A stretch of 64,000 bases of DNA, taken from the NCBI GenBank assembly GCA_002633005.1, contig NMRA01000328.1, positions 123,195 through 187,194 on the forward strand. Reading direction: 5' to 3'. The translations under genes were made by a program, and so were the position numbers. The first letter of the stretch is position 1, and each line of letters opens with the position of its first letter. Under the pieces are notes generated by a model that searched no databases, was not told the origin of the DNA, and saw only the letters and a program-made list of their open reading frames with translations. Positions 7,456 to 39,310 of the stretch are shown one piece after another. The DNA comes from Phoronis australis. Its lineage: Eukaryota; Animalia; Phoronida.

Positions 7456-7735
7456 TTCTCACCCGGGTTTTTTGCCATCCAGAATAATTTTGTTTATACA
7501 TTGGTCAGCTTCAGCCTGAACAAAAATTCTTACCATTCGAGTCTGAAATATCTACGACGTAGACTGACTGAAAATTGGCGATAATGGGTAGGAGATTCAC
7601 GCAGCTAGCTACGGGCATGGGCTTAGGGAACATTGAGCCGGGAAATATCGGAATAGACTTGACATACCAGTTTTGCGGAACATTGGCAACGGAGGAACAT
7701 CGTAAAGAACTGGGTCTTTTGTAACAACAGCTTAA

Positions 7736-8216
7736 AGTACATAGTCACTGACGCCCGTTTTTGTTACTTAGGACTGTCGCTATTCTCTTTGGTGACTTTG
7801 TAGTGGTGCACTTGCGCAAGTTCCCACACTTTGGAGTGCATGTTACCTTGACACCAACATGTGATTGACAGGTGACTCACACGTAGGCCCTGCGTGCGTG
7901 CTGAATCCGCCGCTATCTTTGGCCATAGAAACGAGATGCATATCGAAAGAGGCCATGGCATTTCCAGGTCACGATTGGCAGCCGACTGAGACATTGCGCA
8001 CTAACAGCGGGACCGAACAGTGCCGTAGTGCGATATTGCAAGTGATATAAATAGGATAATCTGGACATCTTGCATGAAAAATAAATGTTTTTCTACCACG
8101 AAGTTTGGTAAGGTGATCGTTTAAGAATGAAACATCGCTGTTTTGTGGCTTTTTATCATAAATTTATGCCGTGGCTCAAAATTTTATTCTTGATTGACGA
8201 GTGGTTCACGGCCACT
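7736..8216. mobile_element. Possible second TTAA-target (Kolobok-type) MITE remnant
   Basis: TTAA|AGT... at 7732-7738 and ...ACT|TTAA at 8214-8220. Terminal similarity beyond a few bases is weak. Confidence 0.3.
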
Positions 8217-11200: not shown

Positions 11201-11233
11201 ATATTATTGCACAAATGGTGTGTTATTGTTATT

Positions 11234-11434
11234 GTTATTAAAGGCTGAAATGTTCACCCACTTTCAATACATGTCATTTGTGCGTTATTGAAGGCTGAAA
11301 TGTTCACCCACTTTCAATACATGCCATTTGTGTGTTATTAAAGGCTGAAATGTTCACGACTTTCAATACATGTCATTTATATGTCATTAAAGGCTGAAAT
11401 GTTCACCCACTTTCAGTACATGTCATTTGTGTGT
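11234..11434. repeat. 50-bp minisatellite, ~4 copies
   Basis: AAGGCTGAAATGTTCAC recurs at 11241, 11291, 11341 and 11390. Confidence 0.95.
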
Positions 11435-13190
11435 ACTTTAGCGCATGCATGCTGAGAGTGGTGACATGCAGCTTGCGATTGCATTGATATTCCGATGTTT
11501 AATGTTGAAGTTTCCGCCTCTTATTGTGAAGCGATTGTGACTCACAAATAGGAGTAGGGATGCACAGTCACATCAACTTTTCAAAAAATTTACAGGTCTT
11601 GATTTTTTTTGCGATTCAAGTAACCACAAGGGCAATTTACCACTTGAAATTTTACTAAATTATGTTTTTGGATTAATCAGTTTGCTCCAAAAAGGGTAGG
11701 CTCATTGTATGCTAATAGGGAGTTGGAAAGGGTTGTGATTGACTAGGTCTATCGCCAGATAATTTTCGAAATGCTTAGTAATTTACAACTCTACGTCAGT
11801 GTGGTGTAATTATGATTATACTTTTTAAGTTTGGCATTTTGATTTTATTTGACCTGTTCCAAAATGTTACAATGACATCATACAAAAAATGAATAACCAA
11901 ATGACACTTGTAGATCGTTTTACTGACCCCAAAAAATTTAATGACCTCGGCTGACCCCTTCGACTATCACATTTTTGAGCCATGAAAACCAACACATTGA
12001 CCTCAGGACAAAATCATTAATTGTATCATTTATTGTTTCAAGTTGATGAATAATTTCTGGATGTAATAAAGAATACACAAAAGAATGGCGTTTGCCTTGT
12101 GAAATCATTTCCATAATTTAAAACAGTTTAATATTTCTGTTGACTGATTGTAATTGCTAAATAAAACATGGTGGATTTTTAGAGCCCAAAATTAAGAAAC
12201 CACAGTGATTTCAAAACTTTCAAAGGATATGTATTTGGGCAGATTGGATATATCCCACATCAAGAGAGAATTGTGATTGCTGTGACTTAGTGTAAAACTC
12301 TTGGAAAGTTGTAATTACATAGGAGTTTATATTGACATTGACATCTGTAACCCTGATTTGTAAATCTACATTGAGAGCCTGTGTCTTAAATAGTGTCCTG
12401 TTACACAACATGTAATACTTTTTGTTACAGATTGTCCAGTGGCAGAAATGTAATTTCCATTCATCTATTTTTATGAATGTGACAATCTTTTAGCAGATAT
12501 AAGTCTGTTTACCAAGGTTTGTCTTTAGACAAGTACCTTTAACCAAACATGCCTGAATATAGCCCTGTAATCACTATTATACCATATCATCCTGGATAAC
12601 CTTGTGATAAACGCACTGTTTTGGGCCATTTAGTTCTCCACTCTATTGAAGTTTGTCATTTTATCTGCTTCGTACCATTGATACCTAGTTGAGAGAGTTT
12701 GCCTTGCGAGATCTTAATCGTCGATTTCGGAAAATCCTTCACTCCACAGTTTGCCTGTCTGATACATTAAGTAGTCCCTGGTGATCATGGAAAATGAGGA
12801 TGATTGCGGCCATCATTAAGAAATTCATTTTCATGCACTCACACATACATGGTACTGTCATATTTGTACGGGTGTGCTGTATCTCCTAAACCCTTACAGG
12901 ATCTTCATGAAATTTGGCAGATGTGTAGTTCTATGGAGTTGACGACGAATTCCGGGAACTTTTGGATATACCCAACAACCAGTGTCCCCAGTGGCTTTTT
13001 CTGGTTTACCCTGTATTTTTTAATTTGGTAAATAGGTTGCTATTGAGATGACATTAACAGACGTAGGATGGGACAAGATGCCCGAGCTAAGGGAGAACGT
13101 CCATAATTTTGTTTCCTGTTGAACTTTCAACTCAGAAAGTGAGTGAGGAATGACTCTCTTCCAGTCAAGTGAGTATCTTATTTAATTATC

Positions 13191-13230
13191 ACTAGTCGTT
13201 ACCCGTGCTTAAGCACGGGTAGCAGCTAGT
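13191..13230. other. 40-bp quasi-palindrome with a Helitron-like 3' end signature (hairpin + CTAG)
   Basis: Perfect 22-bp palindrome TACCCGTGCTTAAGCACGGGTA (13200-13221), bracketed by ACTAG (13191) and CTAGT (13226-13230). Confidence 0.5.
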
Positions 13231-15334
13231 GTATGGGAAATGGCGAGGGGAAATAGTTACACCTTCAAGTGAACATTTAAGCTAAGCTGTCATTGCAAGA
13301 GACAGGGATATTTCTTGAAGAGACCGTTTTTTGAAAGCTTCAGTCAGAATTTCTGTCAGATTTAGACAGGGTGTGCTGCTGTGGGATTCTTTCCCCAGGC
13401 AGTAAAAATATTTTTTCTTTCCAGAACATTTGACCCTGTCATTACATAATGTACCGGTACGGCAGTCAGCTATTTTTTAAAGTGAAAACTAAGGAAGCAT
13501 TAAAAAATACTGCTATTGTACACAAAGTATACAATGTATTTACAAAAGTCACATCGTAAATGTAAATTCTCAGGGTAGAAAGCCAGCTAGCTGTTTGAAG
13601 ACTATTGTCAACTTACAGCTAAGGTAGCTGTATCTTGAGATCTGTTGAGACACTGAAACTTCACACAACTGAATAGCTCACCTCATCACCTCATCGTGAA
13701 ATTTTTGTCAACATGTAGAGCTAACTACCGGGGGGCGGGGGTGTATGCAGAATCCGTGGGAATCAACCGACACTCACCTTGCCCGTTGCAATCAATAAAC
13801 ATCATTTTTGCGTAATTCTCTGCCTTTTGTAACAAAGAAAGTCTATTTTTGAAAACGATGCACTTGTGAAACGCGAACGTGTCATTTCCTGCTGAAATTA
13901 TGTAATATCTCTCGGGAGATGATGACAGCTATCACAGCAAATTGGGTTTGCTGGTATTAAAATACTAATAAGTTATAAGCAAATGAAATCACAATTGTTA
14001 TGACATGTACACAACCTCGTGGAAGAGAAGAACAGTTGATTGAACAATCGGGGAAATTGGCCAATAGGTGACGCAATTGCTCCGAAAGCCGACCCAAAAG
14101 AGCCCACCACAATTTCAGAACAAAATAACGGTAGAATGCCAATTTTTCCTACTTCGGTAAATAGTTAAGTTTATTCAAGGAAAAGTTTAGTTTTTAATGA
14201 CATCATTAATTTTGACAGCGACAGGCCCGAAGAAGTATATACGCGACAAAAGCCGGAGGGAGTGAAATTAAACCGACTGACTAATGTCACCCAGGCCACT
14301 ATGAAACTGGCCACCCTCCCTCCACGTCTGCGAAAAAACAGCCTGAAAAATAGAACACCGCGAATCTAAATAGAGGGCCAGCAGTGCACTACCTGGAACC
14401 ATTAGGTGGTGCCGAAACGGGTAGTGGAGCGGGGGAGATGGAGTTCATGCGAACAATGCATTTTTTATAATGAACAAAATTTTTGTTTCCACTTGAATAT
14501 CAATCAGGTCTTGATGTTTCTGCATGATATTTTTATGTTTTCCTATTGAGGAGAGCACATTGATTTTGGGATGAGTCCAACTACTGTGGTATCTTCAGTG
14601 GCAATTTAAGTTTTCTTCCCATATGCCCCATTTCTAGAAAGTTCCTTCATAGATTTCATGAAGTTTGGCGTAATATGTAATCTATTGAGGAAAAGTGTAT
14701 CAATGTTTGGACAAGTTTGACTATTGTGGGCACCCCAAAGAGGGATTGTGATTTTGTCTGTGTTGACATCTATCAAGTGCTGTGATTGTATCTTCATGAT
14801 TAGGAGAACCTGCTCAATAGTTATTGAACTACCATAGTATTATTTGACGTCCTTATTTCTTTATTGTTACATGGTTTGTGCATACGCATTGCTCTTGTAC
14901 CACTCATGTGGTGAATGCTGTGACTGATGGTGTCAAATCTATTATGTCTAATTTTTATGTGCCCACACATGGGTATGTGGCTGCATATTGCTGTCACTCT
15001 GTTTGGGTACCTCGCCCTGACATTGGCCTTGAATAACTTCCAGGATCTTTGTCAGATTTGGCAGATGTGTTCCTATGATGTTGACTACCGATGATGATAA
15101 GTTTGGCATTGATCTAGCTTAACTGCTGAATGCCCCCTAGTGGGAATTTTAGTTTCCTTAGCATCATGTTTCTTGACAAATAGCATGAAATTTGGCAAAT
15201 AGGTTTCTATCAGGGAGCTAACAATGCCTTGGATTTGACTTATGTTGTGCTACCTTGTGGCCATTTTCAATGTTTTTAATCGAGTTTGCTTCTTAGCATT
15301 CACTTCTCTATCCACCACACTGCTCAAAGGATCA

Positions 15335-15430
15335 TTTGAAAATTGGCATTTTGGAATTGTTGAGCAATTGAAATTAAGTTATTTTGAAAATTGGCATTTT
15401 GGAATTGTTGGGGAATTGAAATAAGTTGTT
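15335..15430. repeat. ~48-bp direct duplication
   Basis: TTTGAAAATTGGCATTTTGGAATTGTTG occurs twice in tandem. Confidence 0.85.
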
Positions 15431-16325
15431 TTGGAAACAACGTAGTAAAAATGTTCATCTGGCTATAAACAAAAAACATTACCACAAACAATGATAGCCT
15501 TGTACATCCCTACGTGCAGGAATAAGTTGGTCATTATGTGACAAATGCTTGTTTTATTTCGTTTTATCTTATTTGTTTTTCTCTCTGTCATAATGGCCGG
15601 TGCTTTATCAATTAATGTGTTGGTGCCAGTGTGAGATGGCAAATGTGTGGGCGGACAAATAATAGGGTAGATTAAATATGATGCTGAAGACTATTTGAGC
15701 ACTTTCAACAGATAATATCTTAAGACTGTCTTAAAGGGAAAATATTACAAAAATATCGAACTACAACATCAATTTTTTAGACATTGCTAGCCTAAGTTAG
15801 TTCTGACTAAGGGCTCTGTCACACCAAGGTAGTTCTCACAACCGATTCTGGGGAATTTGGACAGGGAAATTGTCCCATACTGCACGTACTGCGAAGTGTG
15901 GGAGCTGACCATTCATACGTCACTCAATGTTGTTCAAGGCGATATCTCAAGAAGGAAGATGTCAGTTATGTTTGTGTTTGTATCAAGATGGGGGAGGGTA
16001 TCTACAAGCACCTGTCACTTTTGGTATCATCATTTTCAAGTTTTAACAGCAAGAAAATCAAATTTTTAGAAAATGTTGGCATGATATCTCGAAAGAAACT
16101 TTAGATTTTGTGTACTTTGTTGTTTGGTAATAACTACACCATACAAACTACACTAAAAGCAAAGTCAATTTTCCCAGAAAGTTATTTTTGTTGAGAAAGT
16201 TGACGAAATGAAATTTCACTTGTCCACCATGTTGTGTCCCAAACTGAAGAATTGTTGGTGCTCTGATGGTTGTGTGAAAACAATCCAGAAATTATTGCAC
16301 AGAACAGTGTGAACTTTATATTGGA

Positions 16326-16447
16326 AAATGATACACATCAGTAAGGAACCTTTATCAACAGAGAGTCCAGGAAGATGTCCAAGAAATGATATACATCAGT
16401 AAGGAACCTTTATCAACAGAGAGTACAGGAAGATGTCCAAGAAATGA
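16326..16447. repeat. 58-bp tandem duplication (2 copies)
   Basis: ATGATAYACATCAGTAAGGAACCTTTATCAACAGAGAGT... at 16328 and 16386. Confidence 0.95.
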
Positions 16448-16905
16448 AACTGGTCTCTTTAGTTTTGTTTCTTAAATTTATTCAAAACTACGCCCAAGGT
16501 GACACGTGCTAAATTGCATCTCAAATGATGTCAGGCTAAGGCGAACATACCAGTGTAGAGGAAGTGTAGTTCTAACTCATTGACATCAAAACTCCATGGC
16601 ACTTGTCAATAAACTAGCTAGGTTAGCAGCTATGCACAGTTATACCAGTGCTTGTTGACCTTGGGAATTCCAGTTGGTGTTTGAAACTGGATCCCTAGAG
16701 CCTCTGGAATGAGTTTTTGATGGTGGAAGATAATTTCACTTGTTCATAAAACTGTCATGTTACCTGCTGGCCAAAATTCACACAGCTGAGGTTTCGTCCT
16801 ATGGATTCAGAGATATTGTTGATATTTTCTGTAATGCTATCCACGATCAGATCACGACTTTAGTTTTTGTTTCCCCTGCTACATTCTCACGCTTAATGTT
16901 TTCAG

Positions 16906-17115
16906 ATGATAGTGAAATGAGTCTGGACGAGCCTAACATTCCAACATCAATGGCAGACTGTGGTGAATCTGGACCAGGTGGTCAACAATCAATGACCTCA
17001 CATGGTGAACTGATTCAAGAGAGTGCTATTGATGGTGTTGCCCTGGAAATATCACATGACTCCGAAATTGGGTCAGCCAATCAAGATGGTTCCATGGAGG
17101 TGATCAATATCGGAG
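16906..17115 (+). CDS. Probable internal coding exon of an unidentified plus-strand gene (acidic, Ser/Gly-rich)
   Basis: ttttcag| acceptor, |gtaaat donor, 210 nt, symmetric phase 1-1. Open frame: (D)DSEMSLDEPNIPTSMADCGESGPGGQQSMTSHGELIQESAIDGVALEISHDSEIGSANQDGSMEVINIG. Confidence 0.6.
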
Positions 17116-17647
17116 GTAAATTTTTTAGCAGGTTGTGTTGCCCGGGTAACAAAGTTTTTGAAATTTTGTAAAAGCTGCATGTGTATTTTATGATGGTTTT
17201 ACCAGATGACAAGGAAAGTATTAGGCAGTCAGCTGCAGTAATTCTTCGCTAGTTTCCTTCAAAAATAATTTCCAAAATTGCTATTTTCCATATTTTCAAA
17301 GGTTGATTAACTGACTGCAAACAATAGAAACTTAACCAAATGTCATTTTGTGACAATCTTACACATTTGAACAGCAGATTTAGGTTATCATGGAGAGTTG
17401 CATAGATGTTGGCTGTTTCGTGTGGACATGCAAATAAAGCATTGCTGCAACTTGAGTTTTGAGCATGTATGAAGTTTATTATAGAGGGTAATCACCAAAA
17501 GCACAGTATTTTATTAAAGTGGGTTATAAAGATTGAGATGGTGATCCCTGAAGTACAGTTAAAGTTGCATTTTGCCCTTTTTAGCTCGCTGAAAACAAAA
17601 ATCAAATTAAGCCTTTTCCTCTATGAAATCAGTCTCACAATTTTCCT

Positions 17648-17939
17648 TACCATAATAAGGTTTGCTTTTTGTTACCACGCACATACCATAATAAGGCCTG
17701 CTTTTTGTTACCACGCACATACCATAATAAGGCCTGTTTTTTGTTACCACGCACATACCATTATAAGGCCTGCTTTTTGTTACCACGCACATACAATAAT
17801 AAGGCCTGCTTTTTGTTACCATGCACATACTATAATAAGGCCTGCTTTTTGTTACCACGCACATACCATAATAAGGCTTGCTTTTTGTTACCACACACAT
17901 ACCATAATAAGGCTTGCTTTTTGTTACCACGAACATACC
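17648..17939. repeat. 36-bp minisatellite, 8 copies
   Basis: Unit TACCATAATAAGGCCTGCTTTTTGTTACCACGCACA from 17648, period 36. Confidence 0.97.
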
Positions 17940-18363
17940 GTTTCTGAAGAAGTTAAGACAAACATTTGGAAATTGTTGATTTTATTGCTGTTGGCCAAGA
18001 TTGAAATTTAAAAAATGGCACCCATGGAACTCCATTCAAAAATAGGTTACAAGACCATTTCCATTAAGTACACATCGCAGATCCTTCTTCAGTTAAGAAC
18101 TCCAACTGTGCTTAAAGGGGCAGCTAAAAAGGTCAAAGTGTCACTTTAACTATTTCAAAAGCATTTTGTCAACTCCTGCATAGATTTTACTTTGATTTTT
18201 CATACATAAAATTTAACGCAGGAAGTTTGTTAGCACCACACTAGACACAGGTAGTGTTGTGTTACTTACTCGAAGCAACAGTGAGAATTTCTCCAGCCTC
18301 TGTTACTATTTTTAGTTTGCATGTTTTTTTCTGGAAAGTTCATTCAACTATTCTCTTTTGCAG

Positions 18364-18383
18364 GGATCTGTAGTCAGCCATAA
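18364..18383 (+). CDS. Candidate terminal coding exon of the plus-strand gene
   Basis: Pyrimidine tract + cag acceptor (ttctcttttgcag|). Joined in phase 1 to the 16906-17115 exon it gives GICSQP-stop, followed by AT-rich UTR-like sequence with AATAAA at ~19666 and ~20475. Confidence 0.3.
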
Positions 18384-21073
18384 TGCCATTGGAGAGGTTT
18401 GACATAGCGCTGGACAGACGTCAAAGTTATAGTCATGAGGATTTATTCTAAAAGACGCCGTGTATATGTTAAGTTTGATTGACTGCAAATTGTGTGACGA
18501 TGTTTCTTGATATTCAGCGGATTCATCATTTGTTTTTTGTGCTTGAAGTGAAACGTGTGGCAACCACGATGGGAGGCAAGTTGGTAGGACTGTTTGTTCT
18601 TATATGCTGTCAGTGTCAAAACTCAAGTTACCCTTTTACCCAGAGATATAAATTATTTCCATGCTACTAGCTCCATATGTATGATGGCAGTGACAACCTT
18701 ATGCCAATTTCCTGTCAAATTTGGGTGGGGCCAATCCATCAACTTCTCTTACTGAAGGGTGTGTTCTTCGAAATAACTTCTCTTCCTCATTTTTATTAAT
18801 TCTTATAGGTATTCTCTCATTCTTTCCCTAACTTCATAAGACTTCATTTTCATGGAATGGTACAATGTCATATTTCATAATTACATTAAGTCAAAATCAC
18901 TTACAATACTATGACCACTGTCTGTAAATGCGATATGAACTACTGTTGTCATTCTCAGACATAGCATTAGGATGTGTGATAACCAACTTCACAAGTCAGA
19001 ATTTCTTCAAGGTACATTCTTGAGGGGTGCCTCTAAGCATTGTATCTCCAAATGACAGTGGAGATAGAAACTTTCCTAAGTTTTTATATAATGTTTGGCT
19101 GGTTACAACTCACCATTGATTTGTGTTAGAGGCGGGTGCTTCTGAAATTCCGACTCCTCTGAAATAACTCAAGGTCATGAAGAAAATATTGACTATGGTA
19201 TAAGAAATTAATTGAAAACAAGAATTCAAAAATTGTAACGTCAAATTTCCTATAGTCTTTTCATTGTTGTCGTTCGTTGTATTTGACTTATTTTTTCCAA
19301 CGTTCGCCAACAGTGAAGCAAAAAGAGCAGGAGTGTGTTTTCTAAATGAAGCCATAGATGTCATCACAACTTTCATGTGTGCCAAATCACTTCTTATTTC
19401 ATTCTCCTCATGAGTTTGTCATCTTGATGACTGTAGTCAAAACACGTCTGCTGACAATTTGTGAATGATAATCACGTGTTCAGCTGTTGGATCGTGAGAA
19501 ATAAGGATGTCATTGATCAAAAAGTTTCACTCAAATGTTTTGTTTTGTCTTCATTGTTGAATTATAAATAGGATTTGTTAACCCTGATGAAATATAGGAT
19601 CTAGGTGTGAAAATGTTTGTTGATGATGCTATAGCAATATGCTTGATTTCTAAGAAATATTAATTAATAAAACTGCACATTAGGGGAAATCAAAGTTTTA
19701 TCAAGGACATTTTCTCATCTGACACTTGTTGAAAATGTGTTTTTCTGAACACTAGGTTGCGATCTTTCTTCTTGGAGGCATTACCTACCCAATGCAGTTT
19801 TAATTTTAATGGCAGATTATTTTGATTGTTTCTTGAATTTTCTTCAAATGGTGCGTGAAATTTCACAGACGTCTATAGCAGGTGCAAAGAATGATTACAT
19901 CAGGTGACTTGATGTGTTGTCATGCTAAGGATAACTAAAATTGTCTGACGTGTGCTGTGACGTCAGAGGTTGATGTAATGCAGTAAGCTGTCATGACCAG
20001 CAAACAGTCCTAGGTAGTCTTATCTTGATAATCTGCTCTTTTGAGGTGTGTGAAGTGTGCCTGACGCAGAACTACATTACTCAGCAGTCATTTTCTGTGA
20101 CTATCGTGATTTGGAAGTGTTGTGTTGCTTTCTTTTTGTATCATTAACTCAAATTTATACTATACAAGTCCCTATGAGAACCATAGTAACCTTGGCTCAA
20201 GACTCGCACACTTTCATTTCACTTTGGAATTTCATAAGGTTTTTGTCTTCCAGTCCACTTCCAAGTAATGTTTGGTGGTCTGTGTCCCAGCCCCCAGGGC
20301 CCTCTTTTTACACATTTTTACCTCTTAGAGCTATGTTTCCTTACTGAGCATGCCTTGTTATGGTGGTCTGTGTTGAAATAAATAGCAGACCTCAACATTG
20401 ATACCAGTGATAACTTAGTTGCATTCGCTTTGCCAATCTAATGACAACCTGTTTTGTTGATATGTATTGGCTCAATAAATGAACAGCTTAAGAAGATTTG
20501 TGGGAAATATTCTTTCTTATTCTGATCTTGTAATGTTAAGCATTGTTGCAAATCAGATTAATACTGTATAAAGATGGTTTTGTATGAATTCAGGTACATA
20601 ACCCAGGTGGCCCCAGGCTGTCTTCACATCCCTGCTTTGTTACTCCTTCTTTGCAGTCAAACAATGAGCCTAAAATTATTATCCACACTAGGATCACGGT
20701 GGTCCTGTTGCTGACTGTTAAGGTGATTGATATTTATTTGTTGGTAGACTTGTTGAAATTGTTTATATATATTTCCCGTTAATCTTATATGCTGGTAAAT
20801 GAAATAAAAAAACTTGTTTTTGATATGTTTGATTTCAAAATATCTGAATCACATTTCTGCATGCAAAGGTTATTACAAATTGTCAAAATCCCACAATGCT
20901 CTGGGAAAAGGTGGGAAGTTGTACTTACGTCATTACTATCCCCTCATCAATTTATTAAGCTAAATATTTTTAACACAAATCAGTTTTCAATATATAGCTT
21001 TCTGTTAATGTGGCCTCGTTGCAATAAACACTATGATAAAAATTGAGTGAACTCTAATATTTGCAATAATCAC

Positions 21074-22420
21074 TCAATGACTGCTTAGTGTTAACCATTT
21101 GTGACGTACGAAACTGAATGAACAGAGTCGGGTTTCTTGTTTATGCAAGTTCAGGTGTGTCACGGTTACCTCTGGCAGGATGATCGTAATATATTCGTTT
21201 ATAGGAGAGCTCGGCTCATAGACAACAAACCGAATGATCGAGAATGTGTTTGTTTGCCAGCTAAGTTCTAAAGTAATTAAAACTAAGTTACTGAGTGCTT
21301 GAGTCTCTTTAATTATCATACATCAATCTAACCCCTCTTAAATAAATTTATCTACTGGAGATTTGAGTGGGGGTTCGAGTGTACATACATCTCCAAGTAG
21401 TTGAAGCAGACAATTCCATTACCTGGGGCACTGGTACATACCTGTAATCAGTTTGCACAGGTCAGGCAACGCCTCTATTTACCGATCCTTGTCGTAATAT
21501 ATTTTTTTAGGTGAGGTATGCCATTCACATACCTAAAATAGACAGAGACTCTTTATGAAAACTGTTGCGGGGATCTCATTGGATCTCTATTTTGAATTGC
21601 TGGGGACATTACCGCACTGAAGAGGAAAGGCCCAACACACTATGGTGTCCATGGGGCTGCCCCCTTCGGTCACGACTCGGATCAGCTTAATTGAAACTTG
21701 GTCCTTTAACCAACTCCTAACCGACTTCAAACTACAGTTTTTTGAAATTGCTTCCCTTTCCCGTTGTCAACCACCAAAATTGTGTCAGATGCCTGCACAG
21801 TCTCCAGAATCGTCAGACTGTTCCTGTTCCTGTCGTCACCCAACGCAAACATCCCATATTTCCCCCAGTTGGTTCCTGGGACATGGATCAGGTCGCTAAT
21901 TTTTTTTTGTAGGGTGGGTGCGATGGAGGTTATTGAACACTTCTCGACAGTCATCTTCCAACTGAAACACCGGATAGCTGTCAACGGAGACCGCGTCACA
22001 TAGGCAGTTCGCAACATTTTGTGACATGGACAGATGCCGGTAATTAAATCAACATTCCTATTGAATTTAAAATGGTAAAGATGTTTGTTCATAGATATCC
22101 TTGTTTTGGGGAGAAATATATTATATAACCGTATGAACGTGCATTTACGGGCTCGTACTCCATGTGAAATGATGAGTTCTTCAAAAATAGTTTTCTTCAC
22201 TCACGTGCAGGTGCGTAAAGTTCGTGTCAAGTGCTTTGTTGGACATACATGCATTTTGCATATTTCTTTCAACGTTCGTTTTTCGAAAGCATAACATCCA
22301 TTGTCACAAAATTTTACTCGTTCCCTGCTTTGCCAGCTTAAATTGTCACTTTTCAACCCCTTACTACTTATGAAAAGTGAGTGTTCTACTGGAAGTTTAG
22401 AAACAGTTCGTCGTTATCAT
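21074..22420 (-). pseudogene. Decayed, intronless TRPM-like N-terminal region (SLOG/LSDAT = MHR1/2, plus start of MHR3)
   Basis: Colinear motifs versus TRPM2 as recalled: WQSRERVKFCDNGCYA~WDPKKHVQEMPTDAFG (22335); LIIS..ARK..RLYNIF~LLIS..AKN..RLKSIF (22176); DLITG~WIITG; DLIHVPG~GLIHPTG; NSLTILE~GNLTCLD; ILVVDNGKGKQF~ILVDDGTHGQY (21780); LIRVVTEGG~IVCVVLEGG (21685); VDKFI~VDVAI; LELSWQTNTFSIIR~LKLAVAWNRVDIAR (~21270). Several in-frame stops and a frameshift near 21730. Confidence 0.7.
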
Positions 22421-22805
22421 ACTCGTGTGTAATACGTCGGGGTGCATGGCCCACAAATCCTGGTATCCGTGCAGAAGTACGGTCCCAAACAGTGACCTAA
22501 TGTAAAGTATTGGAGTAGCAAAAAACAAACACAGTCAAAGAGGAAAAACTGAAAATGTGACCCTAACGCTTGCGCGAAAAAATGACCCAAGCCCGGTCGT
22601 AACTTCGATTTCAATTTGCACACAGTTGGCTCGTGAAGACAGTCTTCAACCGACGTCAGGTCTCAAAAATTACCAATTTTACGACATGTAGTTGCGACTT
22701 TGCATCGCGTTTGCAATCGAACATGCCTATGGATCGTCTTACAAAAGTGGAGCTACGAATTAGTACGGACACAGATTTTCGTCCTTCAACAACACGGGCC
22801 CCTGG

Positions 22806-24000
22806 AACTTTCTTGGTGATATTTTTAAGTTCCCGACTCGTGAAATCCTTCCTCTGTAAAAACAGCATACCACGGGGGTTGGCTATGGTGACGGTGGTAC
22901 CATAAAAACGTGTGCAAATCTTGCAAGGCGCGTAACGCACCGGTAGTTCGAAAAAGGACCCACCGTCCATGGGTTTATTTTTGGGTTATGCCCCACGCCG
23001 GGTGTAATAGATGATGTCGTTGGCTTAGGTAGGAAATGACAAGTCGCTTCAGTTGACGAGAGCTGTAAAAATAAAATGTCTTGGAACAATCTTCATTCTT
23101 TTTTTTTAAATTTTCTTATTGTTCGTACAGTTGGATCCAGCCGGCACTTTCTACGAAATCATTGATAGGGACGTGCCTCACGTACTTGTTTCAAAATCCA
23201 GACAAATACAATAAATCATTGGCGGCCAGGCAAATGGGTATTCGAGGCAATAGCTCAAACGATGAAAAGCGGCATTACGGAGGCAACAGCCCCTCCCTTC
23301 TTTCGTTTACCCACACGAAACCGCGTATCCAATCGCGACATACGATACCTAGGACAAAACGGATGTACCCGAGACGATCGAGTTTGCGTCACATTCCTAT
23401 ACTAACCCTTCTAACGTTCGATAGAACCCCCCAGGAGTTGGATAGACAAGACAGGCCTCCGTCCGCAAGTTGCTCTCGTTGGTAACGGGATGGAAATTTA
23501 GAAGCACGGTCGATTTTTTGTCCCATTTCCCTTGACGTCATGGTGCTAACATGGCTTGCACAACGGGTATGGGGACTGTTTCTCGAAGGGTCTGTTAGTA
23601 GTCAATTTTTATATTTTGATCTGCTTCCCTGGAGGCTTCCGAGTTGTTGACAGATTTTATGACGTTCAGCTTTAACTTCAGTGATTTCACGAAACAGGTT
23701 AAGTCATCAGTAGACCGACTTTTAGGCACGAGCCTCGAGAAAGCGCCCCCTGAGGTTTGTGAGGTCTCGTGATTTTTCACGTGCAAAGCTTAGACGAGGT
23801 AATGCAATGCGAAATCGATTTCGTACCACTTCCCCCGCTCACACCGTCGAATAACGCCAGAAATGAAAGTTTGTAGTTCTAACCTACTGAATGCCTATTA
23901 TTTTTGAAGTACATAATGCAACGGGTAGTACACGGCGGATAGGTGGCCTTCTCACGAGTAAAGGATTTTTGCGGTCCTTTGCACGAGACTAATGGTTCAG
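22806..24000 (-). pseudogene. Decayed, intronless Mab-21/cGAS-like nucleotidyltransferase (cGLR)
   Basis: FISG(S)LFDGVSG(G)KWYEIDFAL at 23867-23805 (two small compensating indels; G-to-E spacing restores to 13, as in cGAS GS..E.D). FVLGIVCRDW..W..RR..P (23358-23280). ENLKKKNED..YSSRQLKRLV..Q..W~EQLKERFKD..FSSYHVKTAF..Q..W (23115-22990). LRALQDLHTFL helix, then NPRGMLF..RELKNITKKV~IPEFNLF..KEFLTKQI (22880-22806). Multiple stops and frameshifts. Confidence 0.68.
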
Positions 24001-25665
24001 TATATGATGTACAGTGTGCTTGAAATATCTTTTTAAAAAAGTAAGGTTGATGCATCTAGATTTGTTCCAGTTATAAACTCTTTAACGGCTAAGTTTCAAC
24101 TCTGACATCTTGTTAATTTTTAAAAGTCAAAACTCATCAGCTAAATTATAACTACATTTGTTCATGGCCCTTGACAACTTCTTAAGCCCCATGCATATGT
24201 ACTAAGACTTTTTGAAGAGCAAGATTAATGTAGTGAAATGACAAGAGTATATCAAATTGTAGACTTTTATTTCTCTCTTCAAGTTCATTAAAAACAAACA
24301 GATCCTGACAAGGATTCAAACATCTGCCTTTCTCCATTAGGCATAGTAGTATTACACTGAACAATTTCACCAATCTTTTCACATCCTACTAGTCACTGGC
24401 AATGTCTACAGAATTTCTTACATTCCTGTTCAGACCAAGTCAAATCCAACCAATTACTTGCTAGCTGCTTCCAGGTTTGATAGCATTTTCTGGCGACAGT
24501 GTATGAACATGAATTCACAAAATGGCATAACATTTTTTAAGCGAGCATGTTAACAGCTTAATTTCATAATAGTAGCGTCCACAATTACAGTGGACTGTAA
24601 TAATGGTCACTACATCTCCACAATCTTGACACCTTGGTTTTACAAGAATCGACGATTTCTTAGGAAGACTCATCCATGGGTCGGGAGTATTTTTTACTTT
24701 TTTTTCTCTCACACAATGTGTTGTTACAGGCACACTCACACACACCCCAAAATGTCAAAGTTCACACAAATTACGGAAAAGAGTGAAAAGACTTTTGGAC
24801 GCACACATGCATAAGTTCGCAAAATGTAATACTAAAATCCCTACCAATATTATTCAAAGTCATAAATTTATCAGTAATTGCCTTAACAGTGGTAACAACA
24901 ACAGTTTACATGGGACATTTAAATGTCAATGTCTTATGGCTATGATGAACAGCAACCAAATTATTTGCATTGTCTCGCAGTGCTTCACGCAAGCTGAGTA
25001 GATTAGTTCCACTCTCCTGAGCAAGGAGGTAAGATTGAAAAAGCACCGGGAAAGAATCAATTCACAATCAGTGGTGGAAAACAGGGAAATTCAGCAAACA
25101 CAGAGCAGTAAGTTAAAATATAATTAAAAAAACAAAAATTATTGCAAAACTAAAATTTGTTTGGAACAAGCATGAATGCAACTTTCCTCGCGAGATTTCC
25201 GTGATCTTTCAGTATCTGGAAGATCCTTAAAATTGTAAGAGGAAAAGTACATGGCTCCTTTAACACCTCAGTTCTTGACTCCTATATTACATATCACATT
25301 TTAAAGAAAAGAGGTGTTAAAAATAAATATGCAAATTAATATCTTCACTAAATAGTTTAAAAACGTCCCCTGTTTACAATCTGCGTAATTGGTAACGATA
25401 AACTAACTTATCTAAAAAAATCACAACAAGCATACTACACGGAAAGTAGACAGGGGACACACATATAATACACTATTTGACATATACACCGACGTTTGAC
25501 CAATACGGTAGAAACCATCACTTAATATAACAGTTTAACATATACCCGCAGAAAAAATGCATTTCACTCAAATTTCTCAGACCAACAAGACACGCATTGT
25601 GTACCCCACTTTCAACAATAAATCAACTGGCAACTACACTGAGGTAACATTCTCAAAGTCAAAAA

Positions 25666-25671
25666 TTTATT
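25666..25671 (-). terminator. Candidate polyadenylation signal (AATAAA) for cyclin D; a more distal candidate lies at 24266-24271
   Basis: TTTATT on the plus strand ~430 nt downstream of the stop codon. Usage is unknown. Confidence 0.35.
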
Positions 25672-26102
25672 AGTCAAAATGCAGGAATGTTGCTTTTTCT
25701 AATCTCACAAGCCTCACGGGCTACATGGGAAATTTCAATAAATCAGCGCACATTTTTTCACATAAGACAGCAAATCAAAAATTCTAATTTGACATCAACC
25801 AATGAAAGTCGTGAATGTAAGTAGAAAACAGATTTAGCATAACAGTACTACATCCTTCGAAATAAACTTTTGCATTAGATCTCGACATTACAATGGGTTT
25901 GCTATCCCATAATGTCTCTGTGATTATGACAACACAAAGTGACAGGTTCAAATTTGAAAGAATTTTGTAACGAAACGCTTGTCTGTCTCTGCCATTTAGC
26001 AACATAAGGACAGTCAAACACACACATTCAGTCATCAACATACTATCACACACATTTTCTTAAATAACGGCACAAATTTTCCGCGGCTGTATTGGACATG
26101 CT

Positions 26103-26234
26103 TCATGAAAGATGAACATCTCGTACATCCGTAGGTGTGGTTGGCTGCTCTGCTTCAGGTTTCAAAGATCCAGGTTGAGGAAGATTTGTGGCCAGGGCTT
26201 GCTCTATAAGTTCTTGACACGAGCGCAAAACGTC
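26103..26234 (-). CDS. CCND: G1/S-specific cyclin D, exon 5 (terminal)
   Basis: tttgttttgtag| acceptor. Reads DVLRSCQELIEQALATNLPQPGSLKPEAEQPTTPTDVRDVHLS-stop; TPTDVRDV is the D-cyclin phosphodegron. Confidence 0.95.
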   Translation of the reverse strand, partial: DVLRSCQELIEQALATNLPQPGSLKPEAEQPTTPTDVRDVHLS

Positions 26235-26445
26235 CTACAAAACAAAGGAAGTTATTAAGTGCTTAGCATAGCATGAACATTTGTTAGCTACCACTCATGC
26301 GGTGACCATCAACTTAACTCAAATGTTGACTTTGCCAATCATATTTGAAAGTTTATTCAAGAGGGTGGCATGAGATCAGTCAATTATCGAGTCAAGTAAT
26401 GTTTGGTGGTCATTGCAAATGGCTCAGGTGTCGTGTCAACTGAAC

Positions 26446-26612
26446 CCAGGCCCGTTCCAAGAAACTGACTTAAGTTCATTTTACTTAAGTCTAAGATTTT
26501 TATCAACCTCCAAACTTCCACATCCGGTAAGTTGGTCAAAATTAAAACAAAACTTAAAAACTGATCATAACATTTGTCTAAAGTCAGTCAGTTTTCTTGA
26601 AACATCCCCCTG
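26446..26612. mobile_element. Degenerate MITE (Harbinger-like termini) in cyclin D intron 4
   Basis: CCAGGCCCGTTCCAAGAAACTGACTT versus inverted AGTCAGTTTTCTTGAAACATCCCCCTGG; imperfect. Confidence 0.4.
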
Positions 26613-29600
26613 GCCTGTTCTGTGGCACCACAGCCTTTATATCCAATGAACCTAAACTCTGCTTGAAAAGTGTGTGTTTAGGACCTGTTGCTCAACAGAT
26701 CATAAGTTCTGCCCTGTTCAGCAGACCTCATCAGACATGTTTGACATGTTTAACTAGTCAGGACCACAACAGTTCTCTGCACAAGCTTGCTGGTCAACTG
26801 AATTGAATTTGCCAGCAGAAAGCAATTATCCATGATTGTTCCAGACACAAATGAAAATATTTCAGTCCTTCCAACACAAGAGGATGCACCAAAAAGATCC
26901 GGCTGGCTAAGTCTCAAAGTCCGCATTGTTAAGAAATTTAGTCAAACCCACGCAAATTCCTACAAGGCAAAAACAGAAAGCATACGAGGAGCGGTCATAT
27001 GATGCTAACACTTGACAGTAATCATAAAAACATTTTTAAACGGGAAAATTAAAGTAAGAGTGAAGTGTATTTTGCATTTAACTATTTCAGAGGTATTTGT
27101 GTGGATGAGCAAATGCATTGGGAATTAGTTGTTTCTGGTGGAGTACAAAAATAAAAGTATCCTCCATATGTTTCCTGTCATCTGCTCATCTGCCTAAGTT
27201 ATTACAACACCAGGTCACATGACAAAGACAGGAGGAAACTTGCATCATTTTCAGCAAGGTCATTCGCACAAAACTGTACTTCACTTAAATTTATGGCTAA
27301 TTCATATCACTGGTTGACATGTGAAGCGGAAGTATCTTGTCCCTCTCCTAAGCTAATGCATAGCTTGAAAAACTAAACATTACCAGGCCACTGATGCAGA
27401 CAATTTTTGACATGAGAAAATGTGAGAGCAGACGAAAATGTTAGCGAAGCATAAATAGCAAATAAATGTCTCTCTAGCAGCAAAGCTATTCAACAGCACT
27501 GTGTGACCCCTGCTGCAAATTTAGATCACTTGGTTGGACAGGCAGATGACGTTGAAATGGACACAATAAATCACGAAAATAGTAGCAGATATCAAATTCA
27601 TATTATGCACAGGAAGTTACACAAAACACTGGCCTCATCAAAAACCTGTCCTAGAGTTTGTTTGTGAAGGGATTTAGCAGAGAAACACAAGAGTAAAGCA
27701 TTAAAAGACATTATTCTGCTCATGGCATGGGAATCTATGGGTAAACATGCAAGGAATGCTAGCTGGTAAGGTCCGTTCCCACAGGGTGCACCACACTTGT
27801 ATTGTTCACAACATCATTGTATACATTGTCAGTTCACACTAGACAAAACATTAGGGATGTGAGAAAGTCTACAATCAGCAAATATCTGTGACTCATTTTC
27901 TGGTATTTTCTTATAATCAGTTTTGATTTTTGAACTGCTTGGTACAACCAGACCACCTGTATGAGATACTTTGTTTCAGTTGCACTTTTATGGAACTTGA
28001 TCAGTGAAAATTTCGAATAAAAATCAAGAATTAAATTACGCTTTTAAATAATTGAGGAAAAGTGAAACTCCACACCAGGAAGTGAATTTTGTTGCATCCT
28101 GTTCAACTCTTAAAAAAATCCCAATAAATAAATACAAATTTATACAAACTATTACATATCAGGAACTGAAGGGCATGCTCATTGATAAAATCTGCAGATC
28201 AGTTGAAATTTCCTCCCTCTTCAAGCTGTTGCAGAACCTTCCCACTTCACCCTTTGGCCCACCACGGTGTGGCAATCTCGTTACTGCCTTAATGGTCACT
28301 ATCAGTCATTTGCAAACATAATTTGTGCCTAACTTCCAGGATGTGGCCAATTTTCACGATTTGATCTAATGAAGTTATCAAATGCTTGGAGGACTCCACA
28401 CTCTATACTATTACCCCTATATTAAGAACTTTCATTCACAAATTGTCGCTTGTTAGAAAGGAATTCCATTCTCCGATTTCCTGACATTTGCAACACATGT
28501 ACTCCCCTGACATCGCTCACAATTATCATATGCTGGTGTTATTACATGAGAACCAGATACTCCATGTGCTTGGTCAGAGGATGAACTAAAAGCCAACAAA
28601 CCCTTTGTACAAAAATGTTTAACTATTTTTTGCAGATACAGATTTTTGAAAACAAAAGAATTGTTCGGAAAACATTTCCAAACCATCTACTAAAAATGTA
28701 CAAGACAACAGGTCAATGACTCAGAATACAAGCTTATTATCCATTTTTGTTATGACAATTTTGAAGCTGCTGATCAGTTTTTCCCACCAGATGACTGCAA
28801 GGAAACAGATAGGACACCAGTGAAGAAAAAACTAAGAAAAACAGGGAACCTTGCTGTCTGGGAACGGGGCTATTATTTACTGTTGGAATGCCGAGTACAC
28901 TCCAAAGGTCTGGGAAAATCTGCTCACCAGCAATGTTTTGGGCGAGAAAATTGAATTTAGCTGGAACAAAAGTTGCGCCAACTGAGTGCTCTGTGTGCAT
29001 AGCATTATCAGTGAAGCGTACAAAGACTGGTCAAGCAGCTTCAGGAATTCAAAAAAACAAGATCACTGCACAGAAATAAAAATGTCTCCATCTGTTTTGT
29101 CTAGGTTTGCAAATGAAGCAAAGCAAATTTGGTCAAATTATGGAAGTGCTTGTGAAGTTGTAAAACAGACATTCATTGGAAAATTGTGAGAATGTGGGAC
29201 CCAGTCATAAAATGACTTCAGTAAAAACAACATAAACCAGACAAAGCAGCAAACCGTGCATTAGAAGATAATAGTTTACTTTTTCAGACAATGGATGGGT
29301 TTTAAAATATCTATGTAAATGTGTTTTGAACATAACCTTAGCAAACCTAACTTTATTTACAACAAGCTTCTTCAAACAGGCCCTGTGAACTTGATCATGA
29401 TTTGAGCTAGTGATTTCAGTCTCTGGGTCTCCGAATAATCAAGAAATTTGACTGTTTATCAAACAAAAATTCTGATTAATTCCACAGAAATCACCTTAAA
29501 GGAATGCAGAACAGATTCAAGAATTTCATGTCGTTGTTGACCCTTAAGATTTCTACTTTCTCAGTTCACTTGGCATGAACTAACAATATTAAATTTGTAT

Positions 29601-31064
29601 AGGAAGAAAAATTGTGAGCCAACTATGTGTGCATGAACTTGAATGCACAGTGCTCGTTATAAACACTCCATATATATTGCAAATGTGTTTTCAAGTGTGC
29701 CAATGACATTTCTTCTGCAACTATTACAGGAGGCAGGTCAGTCAGACACAAGCCTCTATCAGTGTTATCTATAAAGCTTACTGGCTCTGGTTTATATTCT
29801 TGTTTTGTTACAAGTTTGGAATTTCACAAAACGAATGTCTTTGTTCTCACTGCTTCCATGAAGTACCCAAGAAAAGATTCTGCAGTTGCCATGGTAAACC
29901 ACCATGATGAGGTATGCCACCCTCAGTGACAACTGGCTTTATGTTGGTCAATTGTCTTTCCCAGCACAACCCCAGTACACGGGCCATTGACAAGGATGTG
30001 GTCTCCATGACAACCATAGGGTTGCCATGGAAACAATTACCCCAGATATACCAAGCAACAAACAGGTGTCTACCAATCCCCCAGCAAATCAGAGAGAAGT
30101 CCTGTGAGATTGGTCAAAAGCCTGTCCAGCCTGTCATCCACGATTTTTAAACAAAGCCTACTCACAAGTGCAGTTGTGGACTGGAATAGGCTTGATGGAA
30201 TTTTTATTGCTCAGGATATGTGCACGGGATGAAACAGTGGACAATATGAAAAATGATTAGACTGGCCAAAGCATGCATTAGGCCAGCCTGATGTGTATTT
30301 CTTCTGGATTTAATTACTGTGATTAAACAAACTTGATACTTGCTACTTCCTGCCTCAGCCAACACCCTGCTTGTGCACATTGACAAGATTAGCAGATAAG
30401 CTGAACCTAAGGTCTCTCATATGGTCTGGCCAGAAAGGACTGGATGGTCCCACCAGTTCATAAGTGGGGGTCTGATTAAACAAACACCACTTAATTTAGG
30501 GAAAACCTTGCTTGCCACTGTCTTTCATTCACAAAAGTGTTTGCTAGTATGGTGCAGGAAGACACATGGGAACTGGTTTCAATAGGAAACATGAGGCGCT
30601 CGGCAGGGTTGGCTCACTGGTCATTTAGTAAGTTAATCAGTGTCAAGGGGATCCTGGGTTACATTTGTTTCAAAAGCAAAAATTTTAGCTATAGATGTAA
30701 AAGCAGAAAAACAGAGAATGCAAATTTATTATCAGTTGGTACTTTGAAGTACTCTCGTCTTAACTTAAAAGTGATTTTCAGCAATGCTAGAAGAGTTTGA
30801 AGTACACCGGCATTTTTAGTAGTGTTAGTAGGCTTTCCACGACTTGCAACTCAGCATGAAACCCAATAATTTAAATCCTCAAGCAGCATCTTTGAAGACC
30901 ATTGTTTTGCACCTTTAGTACAGCAAGTTATCAGTCCTAATTACACATAACTATAGAGGGAATTGCAATTCTGATTTGACCAAATTAGCAATAGGTGGGG
31001 CTTTAAGTAAAATTATCATTTCTAGCGTTATTATTCTTAGAATAGTATAGTATTGCACACTTAC

Positions 31065-31204
31065 TGTATCGATGCCTGTAATCTGGTGAATAATCTTGAT
31101 GAGACTGTATTGGTGAACCCACTCATGCCCTAACAACCCATTGGCTGCGGCACCTATACTGCACGCTGCTATTGTGGACGGCGTGTATATGGCGAATTTG
31201 AAGT
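31065..31204 (-). CDS. CCND: Cyclin D, exon 4
   Basis: ttcag| ... |gtaagt, 140 nt. Reads (D)FKFAIYTPSTIAACSIGAAANGLLGHEWVHQYSLIKIIHQITGIDT (cyclin C-terminal domain). Confidence 0.95.
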
Positions 31205-34200
31205 CTGAAATAAACAAATGAAAACAAACATCAAAATCAATACATAAAAACAATATTAGCATGCAATGAATTTCCTTTTCTCAAATTCTTTTGGATTTGG
31301 ATGTTTCTATAACCACTCATAAGTTCAAACACAATTTAAATTTCAAAAATGACTGGCCGATTTCCTTTAAAAACGTCGTTAACATAACTAATCATCGTTA
31401 AGAATATGTTTCCAATTATTCAGTGCTTTATATAAAACATAAACAGTAACGTTGCAACAAAATCCAGGACTCCCACATAGTTACCCCACACTCTCTCACT
31501 CTCCTTCAAACCTGAAGCTGCCCATAACAACAAACATTTCATCTCAGATAACATTAACATCAACAATGCCAGCCTAGTATTTCAACTATTTCACTGAGGT
31601 AGGGAGCACTCATTATGTCACTACACTTTGAATAATGATTACTCAGTACTTACCCATGCCAAGTGTATGCTGTCTGGACATTGCTTTCTTAAAGCGACCA
31701 ACGTGTATATTACATTTTTAAAAAATTTTTACTTGACTTCATATTATTCCACTTCTCGTGACTTTAACACCTACAGTGATTAGGTCTACATGGCACCATA
31801 TCGTTAAGTTTTCAGTGAATTTTCTCATGAAAAAAATTGCCTTCAGATATCTTTAACACACATCCGACTGACAAGTGCCTATAGACACAAAGTTGATAAA
31901 CACCAATAGCAAATCTGCTGCAGTCTCATTATTGCTTAAGAAACATAATAACATGCCACAATAGAGGTTATTAAAATTCTGGGTTAAAACATATTTACCT
32001 GTTCAAAAATAATAGATATCAAATTGCTTCTGTACCAAAAGAAACCTACCAAAGTTTGTACTTAACCGTTTTGGAAAATAAGAAGTTGTTCTGAAGGTAC
32101 GTTTTACAGGCAGATTGTGATTCAACACAGCAACTAACTCAGATTACAAATCTGAGTGACTTACCAATAATGGTGTAACTTAAGTGTGACAGGCACAATT
32201 TTCAATGCACAAGTTCGACACTAGAGTGCATAAAATGGTTGAAGCCTGAACTTGATGCACGTTAAGATTTTTAAGAATTACAAAAAGCTTTATCGCCTCC
32301 AAACGGAGAGATTGGATTTTTAAGTTTCATTGCAAAAAACAAACAATGAAATCAACATACTTTCAAGTAAAAAAATCTAATCTCACAATGATTTACCCAT
32401 TATGCATGGAAGGCCATACCTTTCCAACCCTTTGGAGATCACAGGCACAAGGTTTCATCTATCAAATTTTAACACAATGGGGATGTGGTCATGAATTGGA
32501 AAGTACCTGATCTCCTTCAGGTATTCTCCTCAAGTGAACTAAATCAGCACCTGCTGTCGAATACCTCAGCATACCTGTTGATTGGCAGTGGACTAGACCA
32601 GTTTCTAACAATCAGCTTTTACTTAAGGTATTGGATGACAAAGACAGACAGATTACACCTCAACAAACCATCAACCCAAACAAAGAAAGTTTTGAACTTA
32701 AACCCCTTCAAAACATCTGCTAGCATGTTTTAATAAATCACCATAACCTATGACAAAAGTCTCATTCTTACACCTACTACTTGCAAAAGCTTAGACAACC
32801 AAATCGCATCAGTTGACCACTTATAACCCAGTTTTGACTCTTTTCACACAAAACAGAGTTCTAGATTGTTATTCAAAATCATCAAGCACATTTCAGAAAA
32901 CCCCCCTTAGTGATGACAAATTCTATAAGCCATTTAACGCACAATTTGGAAATTGCTCCGGGGTTACTGCACTGACAGACAACAGAGAAAAAAATAAGCA
33001 TATTGTTTGGTATCTCCAGCGGAGAAGAGCTTCTACAGGCTGCCACAAGTGGATTGGAATACATTCCTGAATAACATTTTATCCATTGCAATAAAGCTGT
33101 GCAAACTCTATCATAACCAAACCTCGTTCCACCAGTTAAAAGTTGCCCTGAAACAGATGTCTCAGGCAAAAGCCAAGCTGTTTCAATGTCCTTTACAAGT
33201 CAATCATTTCTACCAAGCAAGGCTCCTTCCTGAACAACTAGCATGGAGTTTTGTATCAAAACAAAAAGTCCGTGCAATGCTTCAGGGCATGTCTCATACC
33301 ACAACCATGCATGGTATGCGATGGTGGACTTTCCCAGGAATAAAATACATGGACCTGGAAGTTGAGACTTTCAAAGGCAGGAAGATTATACTATATAACC
33401 CCAAACCAAAGATGAAGAAACAGTGAGCAAAAATAGAGGATAGGTGGTTTGATTTTTAGACACCAATTTTGAAATGAAATGTAACATAATGTTGAAATTA
33501 TAGTATGTGTGCAAAATATAATTTATGGTTATTCAAGAATTATTGGTCTTTTCCACTGTTTGCATATCACGTATTTGTACAAAAGTACTGGCACTCGCTA
33601 ATCTCCTTGGTGATGTCTACTGTTTACCAAATTGGTGGACCATTTTGAAATTCAATGATCCATTGTTTCTAAATATATTTAGCAAATAGAAGCTAAGGGT
33701 TATGTTGAGATAAGCTTGAACACACCATACACTGTGTAAAGCTGGCCAAACTGCTCAAATGGCCGAAGTCAACAAACTATTGACACCCTCCATTCACCAG
33801 ACTGTCAAAGAGCTCTATATCAGTTCAGATAAGGTTTGCCTCAGTCATTCCATTATTTCTAAAAATTCCTTTTGCGTTGTGAACTCAACACCATTTCACA
33901 GCACCCTCTATAGGCACTCTGGTTCACTAGGCACTTTGGCTTGCCATCTGAAACAATTTCCCTTGGCAACACAGGCAAATTGGGTATGATAAGTTGCTTT
34001 GTAATAGCTGCTAGACTGGACATGTGTGGGAAGATTGTCAGTGAAAGTGTTCCTAGGGTTAATTTGATATGGATCTTGACAATGGACAACCACAGAGTGA
34101 AATGGCTTAGTCAACATGCAAGTGTTTCTTAACCAAACACTGACAATGGACCATGATGACAAAACATTCCCCAACTCACTTCTTAAGATGTTTACATTGA

Positions 34201-36447: not shown

Positions 36448-36607
36448 CTATACAGCAAAGAGCGATAAAAGTCTGAGCATGACGTTTCATTGTTTCCTGT
36501 CGCTCTTTGTTGATTGGAAGTCTCGTTAAGATCTGTTCTAAAAAGTCGTTAGGAGTGATTGCTGAAAGGTCCCACTTTAGTTTCTGTAGCACAAGAATTT
36601 CCCATTC
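36448..36607 (-). CDS. CCND: Cyclin D, exon 3
   Basis: ttttgtag| ... |gtgaga, 160 nt. Reads EWEILVLQKLKWDLSAITPNDFLEQILTRLPINKERQETMKRHAQTFIALCCI. Confidence 0.97.
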
Positions 36608-39247: not shown

Positions 39248-39310
39248 GGTGAACCACTTGTTGATTGTAGACTACAACAACGACTTGGTTACTACAGATC
39301 GACTGAGGAA

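Follow-up and report, generated by a model that had tools for sequence, protein, structure and literature searches.

Did an animal lineage once join a maker of cyclic nucleotide second messengers and a nucleotide sensor within a single gene? This question is raised by positions 21074–24000 of a 64,000-nt stretch of the Phoronis australis genome (contig NMRA01000328.1), which in its whole length is referred to here as the window. A preliminary description, made by eye from the sequence, had read the minus strand of this spacer as the fossil of a cGAS-like receptor (cGLR) joined to a TRPM-type SLOG N-terminus. Our analysis indicates that the spacer holds a decayed minus-strand copy, which was probably once coding and has relatives elsewhere in the genome. 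Tentatively, we take its 5′ half (about 24000–22800) for a copy of a dispersed, partly transcribed family, most plausibly of divergent cGLRs, and its 3′ half for sequence unrelated to them.

Minus-strand coding trace and relatives of the spacer

The motif-like strings on which the description was built are all present on the minus strand, where they lie colinearly at the positions and in the frames given below. Coding potential was assessed by a homology-free read-through test, which determines the minimum number of breaks, counting both stops and changes of frame, that a reading of the whole sequence would have to cross. The minus strand of 21074–24000 requires 25 breaks as compared to 34.6 ± 3.4 in shuffled sequences. 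Counts as low were obtained in 2 of 1000 dinucleotide and 16 of 1000 trinucleotide shuffles, and a lower count was found in one of 114 real control tiles, placing this strand second among 115. The resulting P value is optimistic, since the region had been chosen for looking coding. The plus strand is ordinary in this respect (135 of 200 shuffles). Fifteen of the 20 motif words sit in the locally most open frame, but these words are not independent of one another, and readers favour long open stretches. The coding trace thus gives modest support to a decayed minus-strand gene.

The stops and frameshifts are real features of the DNA. One DNA contig of run X1 covers 20700–24400 with a single differing letter, and a contig of run X2 covers 21020–24400 with three differing letters and 27 gap letters (a 24-nt deletion plus a 3-nt insertion); both runs come from the same sample, which is possibly the source of the window itself. 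Assembly error was accordingly dropped as the source of the breaks, as these DNA contigs carry the same ones. The X2 contig represents a second haplotype, in which the deletion removes 23869–23892 and the insertion lies at 23703. Both indels are multiples of three, which may be due to chance.

Transcription was assessed in three RNA runs of a single study (X5, X6 and X7; X5 and X7 were each read to 18–19%). In X5 and X7, depth is zero over 20824–24171 except for diverged reads at three small islands, and in X6 a mean depth of 0.12–0.15 was observed on the plus strand over 21340–22673. In these runs, 21074–24000 thus has essentially no RNA of its own. It probably represents a pseudogene without activity.

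The relatives of this copy became apparent from two stretches of about 40 nt in the cGLR-like half, of which diverged copies exist elsewhere. Island A (23682–23725, minus strand) is common to about four to five other contigs of single-copy depth and island B (23515–23555, minus strand) to about 17 other contigs, the copy numbers being derived from summed depth as single-copy loci. Another 29 contigs of X1 overlie part of the region at a likeness of 80%. Island A is matched by 21 and 11 RNA reads from another locus, which have minus-strand sense, and island B by reads from other loci, most of them of that sense too (10 and 35 minus-sense versus 2 and 5 plus-sense reads). Inspection of the main read groups by hand revealed that island A is open in the frame of the string EIDF and island B in that of FVLGIVC, the two nearest cGLR-like motifs; such agreement is a 1-in-9 coincidence at best. 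The loose ends of these read groups still resemble the window, again as judged by hand. A third island (23076–23112) is T-rich, plus-sense and present in one run only. There are no paralogue islands in 21050–22550, and a trace was found at 22560–22683. The core of island B has no second exact copy within the window and was found in none of 164 loci and in no viral contig; Rfam returned no match for the region. A death-domain reading of 23760–23480 was dropped, as its key Trp codon is a stop common to the paralogues and Pfam gave no match. Taken together, the read-through test, the breaks carried by the DNA contigs and the island relatives bear out the part of the preliminary description that concerned a decayed minus-strand copy.

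The spacer is CpG-undepleted, with an observed-to-expected CpG ratio of 1.01 in 21000–24000 as compared to 0.40 and 0.34 in the flanks. Gene-body methylation, as is typical of invertebrates, accounts for CpG-depleted gene bodies. The CpG richness requires no insertion, because the other spacer of the window (38–57 kb) has an equal value (0.99), and was dropped as proof of one.

The 5′ half and the animal cGLRs

The closest system to the 5′ half is provided by the animal cGLRs (Mab-21, PF03281, plus Mab-21_C, PF20266), especially by the bivalve proteins XP_033761250.1 and CAC5365966.1 of Li et al. (PMC9980059). There, the active site is defined by the pattern h[QT]GS X8–20 [DE]h[DE]h X50–90 h[DE]h. 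The proposed activation loop with its acidic motif occupies 23811–23864 of the minus strand and comprises the strings ISG (23864, frame 1), FDG (23851, frame 2) and EIDF (23822, frame 1). The second of the three elements is represented by E-I-D-F, 12–13 codons past the G and in the same frame, whereas the loop itself reads I-S-G-V and lacks a G-S, possibly owing to decay. Thus, of the sequence G(S)xxDG..ExD that had been proposed here, EIDF and FDG are present, whereas the G-S pair is absent, and assembling the motif takes two frame switches within 45 nt. With the cGLR profile described below, this segment ranks 1,901 of 127,876. In place of h[DE]h, I-R-F is found at 23364, with an Arg at the position of the third catalytic acid, 154 codons after the E as compared to 50–90; one row of Table S1 of Li et al., counted by hand, has about 160 codons between the acidic motifs.

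The best cGLR look-alike is the block FVLGIVC..W.....W..R....P (23283–23364, minus strand), which ranks third of 127,810 positions with a profile of real cGLRs, two unrelated sites scoring higher. It is made up of the frame 0 strings IRFVLGIVC (23364), W (23331), RREG (23301) and LLPP (23289). Further along follow the motifs of a proposed helical bundle (22806–23139, minus strand; W...E, RQLK, PRGMLF and ITKKV, assigned by eye), with SSRQLK at 23064 in frame 0 and PRGMLF (22877) and ITKKV (22820) in frame 1. The four cGLR motifs tested besides the FVLGIVC block are ordinary (ranks 506–4,146). Of the proposed motif set, one block stands out, whereas the family assignments are not confirmed as exceeding chance.

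Some likeness to individual bivalve proteins can be seen by eye in rows of Table S1. The scallop protein XP_033761250.1 has a close counterpart of FVLGIVC together with the W...E...RQLK register. The Mytilus protein CAC5365966.1 is the only cGLR of Table S1 with DLTCF, located just after a G-F-x-R-L strand; in the window, it follows AFSRL (rough chance estimate ~0.08 over the word matches inspected). The words EGQKI, TMTS and YEIDF match rows at non-corresponding places, and eight of the 12 words sought gave no match. The 5′ half thus resembles cGLRs in its multi-copy context and in the order of motifs (acidic ExD, G/A-F-x-R-L, F-V-L-G-I-x-C-x-x-W, W..R..P, RQLK), and differs from them in lacking a G-S loop, RNA and a profile match, in having Arg for the third acid and in its broken frames. 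A very large family of cGLRs was encountered separately: three loci (L006, L020 and L031) and about 50 more in animal-containing metagenomes encode long single-ORF (open reading frame) cGLRs of up to ~970 aa, with weak TPR matches, and about 3,900 stretches in such metagenomes are estimated to carry the cGLR motif pattern, chance matches included.

Several results weigh against a once-coding cGLR copy. By halves, the coding trace of the 3′ half (4 of 200 shuffles as low) equals or exceeds that of the 5′ half (46 of 200), which this reading leaves unexplained. Third codon positions hold just two of nine island substitutions, that is, there is no third-position bias. One minor island read group can form a hairpin, and none of its three minus frames is free of stops, as would fit a non-coding repeat. 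The cGLR motif spacings need inserts of 17–50 codons. Pfam detected no Mab-21 in six frames of 20900–24300, 10 pieces, 84 tiles and three long pieces; intact control ORFs do match Mab-21 and Mab-21_C. A phmmer search of the PDB produced only chance rows (best E 0.063), and a search of 1.84 billion representatives gave no match at E ≤ 0.001 with its query, one of the three minus frames over 21700–23499, which stops ~15 nt short of island B. Finally, the scores with seven cGLR profiles lie within the null; at best they are 3.05–3.8 bits, values reached by 7–9 of 150 shuffles and 8–14 of 66 real tiles.

These profiles were scored by a codon-aware, frameshift-tolerant forward method. They derive from 57 real cGLR ORFs, mostly of one clade, kept from a motif scan of 120 loci, the rest being short or GC-rich chance matches. 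With the main profile, the target scores −0.5 bits versus a shuffle mean of 0.6, and allowing long gaps brought no gain. When simulated, a profile that stacks the three frames had no advantage over single-frame ones and was not used. In simulations, fossils of the same clade still reach a median of 61 bits at 40% decay, and those of another clade a median of 8.5 bits at 20% and 3.6 bits at 30% decay. Because power for another clade is this low, the negative profile tests are compatible with a distant cGLR. Other searches were likewise empty: word-indexed homologue searches returned no matches, NCBIfam and PADLOC found nothing relevant in frames, pieces and tiles, and the ESM Atlas gave no usable match for two stop-free ORFs. 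Single-sequence AlphaFold models had mean confidence (pLDDT) values of 29.7 and 35.6, the latter for the frame at 22954–23592, and were too poor for a fold search. Judged from sequence likeness, the 5′ half may be of cGLR origin, with the case for and against it about evenly balanced.

The 3′ half, the proposed fusion and competing explanations

The 3′ half had been read as the MHR1/2–MHR3 region of a TRPM protein. On its minus strand, a nearly open frame (21730–22431), which includes a 157-aa ORF (21730–22200), holds the frame 0 strings YTRV (22431), GLKSDNL (22359), ITGICP (22044) and VVDNG (21774), and a further frame (21074–21748) holds the frame 2 string VTEGG (21673) and the MHR3-like words LELSWQ (21271) and FVRHKWL (21112). 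Neither frame has a database match; in particular, frames, pieces and tiles gave no match to LSDAT_euk (PF18139) in Pfam, nor did any TRPM chain of the PDB match. In common with the MHR1/2 (SLOG, LSDAT_euk) and MHR3 of TRPM2-type proteins, the short words are ordered xNL, NF, GICP, VVDNG, EGG and L.L.W, and by eye 21790–21630 resembles the TRPM2 blocks LVDDG, LRxRLE and VVLxGG. In contrast to TRPM2, two spacers exceed the expected length by 31 and 42 codons (hand-counted residues in zebrafish TRPM2, 6drj, versus the window: 11/10, 61/92, 48/90 and 44/35), a hand search found no counterpart in the window for the conserved blocks WIxTGG..GVMK and GSGRxAD, and there is no statistical match. The six-helix TRPM channel domain is also missing, without a Pfam match in six frames of 20900–24300, and the spacer ends at about 21000.

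A test of fair power used a SLOG profile built from nine sequences kept from 14 of 18 bacterial loci; the bacterial alignment scores TRPM chains of the PDB with 38–89 bits. The target reaches −0.6 bits (−0.57), and 41 of 300 and 26 of 150 shuffles score as high. Simulated TRPM2-like controls (85 bits when intact) fell as low in 4 of 180 trials at 10–30% decay, and 50-bit controls in 26 of 180 (at 25% or 30% decay, in 12 of 36), the simulation modelling decay without the extra inserts of 30–40 codons. A canonical TRPM2-like fossil is thus unlikely, any TRPM origin of the 3′ half is doubtful, and its TRPM-like words probably arose by chance in sequence that has a different origin. In bacteria, we also came across two proteins of 600–650 aa (L126:391–2190 and L129:241–2184) with an N-terminal SLOG domain and hydrophobic C-terminal halves that by eye resemble SLATT.

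CBASS and Thoeris are bacterial synthase-plus-effector modules, and the preliminary description had proposed a comparable, STING-independent mechanism. The likeness is limited to this proposed logic: there is no PADLOC match, nothing is expressed or intact, and the locus does not work like such a module. No evidence for the mechanism was found in the window, and homologue searches yielded no intact two-domain parent. As far as the tools reach, neither half has a significant match, to Mab-21/cGAS or to TRPM/LSDAT, the power for cGLRs being low. As to the architecture, 87% of cGLRs are without an added domain, and Table S2 of Li et al. (PMC9980059) contains one weak entry for the TRPV superfamily but none for LSDAT, TRPM, SLOG, Ion_trans or Nudix. 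The absence of the fusion from this broad survey lowers its prior. A full-text literature search, with bioRxiv supplements and subscription papers outside its scope, found no paper joining Mab-21 with TRPM and SLOG, LSDAT with Mab-21, or SLOG domain with TRPM and nucleotidyltransferase. As judged by their listing, papers naming both cGLR and TRPM look unrelated, and TRPM occurs nowhere in PMC10732462. The fusion thus appears to be undescribed in the literature searched. If it were true, it would add a cGLR architecture that is missing among the roughly 3,100 animal cGLRs surveyed (PMC9980059, Table S2), and it would be a direct candidate for a way in which an animal SLOG domain senses cyclic nucleotides without STING. 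That a gene family of this invertebrate lineage fuses a divergent cGLR to a channel-less TRPM-type SLOG/MHR region as a STING-independent synthase-plus-sensor, with a dead copy in the window and live members among the ~17 island loci, is at best a long shot.

What else could have produced the spacer? It is conceivable, though on the unlikely side, that it represents a decayed transposable element or another lineage-specific family, neither cGLR nor TRPM, whose motifs are look-alikes. Such an origin would suit the multi-copy islands, several of whose matches fall at contig ends, with their palindromic features and with reads in either orientation, as well as the lack of third-position bias, a coding trace that spans both halves and the negative outcome of all family searches; moreover, another CpG-undepleted insert of the window (3075–8935) is likely a transposon with terminal inverted repeats. 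However, the edges of 21074–24000 carry no terminal repeats, Pfam found no transposase or reverse transcriptase in frames and tiles, and the island frames agree with those of the cGLR-like motifs. That the spacer is plain non-coding DNA, which never coded for anything and merely contains some small fragments of repeats, is improbable: strand-specific read-through at the level reported above and, albeit not independently, the concentration of motif words in the most open frame speak against it. In its favour, CpG content equals that of the other spacer, no frame is strongly stop-depleted in 21074–24000, an ORF of 157 aa is by a rough estimate expected about once per 64 kb, and a second SLOG look-alike, HVPGTNWG (21885), which is incompatible with the first, illustrates how easily such words arise.

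The fossil of one cGLR plus TRPM-type SLOG/MHR gene, whose intact relatives would make and sense a cyclic nucleotide in cis, would account for colinear words on one strand, for a coding trace that reaches its greatest strength when all 2.9 kb are taken together and for the likeness of 21790–21630 to TRPM2. Yet it is very improbable in view of the SLOG profile score, rarely as low in TRPM2-like fossils, the overlong spacers and missing blocks, the confinement of paralogue islands to positions outside 21050–22550, and the silence of Table S2 on such domains. Hardly any credence can be given to two separate fossils, of a cGLR and of a TRPM-like gene, lying head to tail by chance or as remnants of a dead cluster. 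Islands confined to the 5′ half and a pyrimidine-rich tract ending in AG at about 22560–22500 (by eye) would be in line with a junction of this kind, but a TRPM match is missing here too, and two independent fossils that exactly fill one spacer are less parsimonious.

A decayed family copy in the 5′ half, most plausibly of a divergent cGLR, next to unrelated 3′ sequence is therefore the explanation that we tentatively retain. In this reading, a member of the family would have come to lie between the two convergent genes as a duplicate or a retrocopy. It lost expression and gathered the observed stops and frameshifts, and may have retained its CpGs through its position outside the CpG-depleted gene bodies. 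With no RNA, broken frames and no intact catalytic motif, the copy would yield no second messenger. As it stands, the locus is of minor importance, adding one dead copy to a large gene family of invertebrates, and is useful in that it points to a family of about 17 loci, some of them transcribed, that match no protein library searched.

Flanking genes and other features of the window

The CpG pattern of the window is a mosaic, and the DNA is animal. The spacer fills the gap between the 3′ ends of two convergent genes. On one side lies the cyclin D gene (24273–39271, minus strand), whose first coding exon (38966–39271) matches Cyclin_N in Pfam (E 2.4e-7) and whose exon near 30954–31280 gives a weak Cyclin_C match (E 0.0037). 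The last exon begins at 26234, where RNA reads continue into the preceding exon; together with a 3′ untranslated region of ~1.8 kb, it spans 24273–26234 and encodes the C-terminus TPTDV. The cyclin D mRNA ends concentrate at 24273–24332, about 270–330 nt from the 21074–24000 stretch. On the opposite flank, weak plus-strand RNA was detected over about 16700–20900, including the 3′ region of a weakly transcribed plus-strand gene (18005–20900, RNA depth 1–9). Pfam found no match in the plus frames of 9001–21000, among them a 145-aa open frame at 16734–17168 that resembles an exon. Among the control tiles, only the 3-kb one of this flanking gene (16734–20900 area) surpasses 21074–24000 in read-through signal.

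Elsewhere in the window, the element at 3075–8935 has terminal inverted repeats of 27 bp without mismatch, internal repeats of 31 bp and, at 4697–5011, a weak match to THAP (E 0.014), all consistent with its likely nature as a DNA transposon. Upstream of cyclin D, a CpG-undepleted block of 19 kb (38000–57000) is without a long ORF and contains five Ns at 43253–43257. High-copy interspersed repeats, with summed DNA depths of 1,800–10,000 per bin, are found at 12876–12926, 13600–14240, 14970–15320, about 16200 and 26449–26534; one of them is intronic, at a distance of 200 nt from the final exon of cyclin D. Lastly, 17648–17939 is a tandem array of 8.1 copies of a 36-bp unit, with frames open on both strands.

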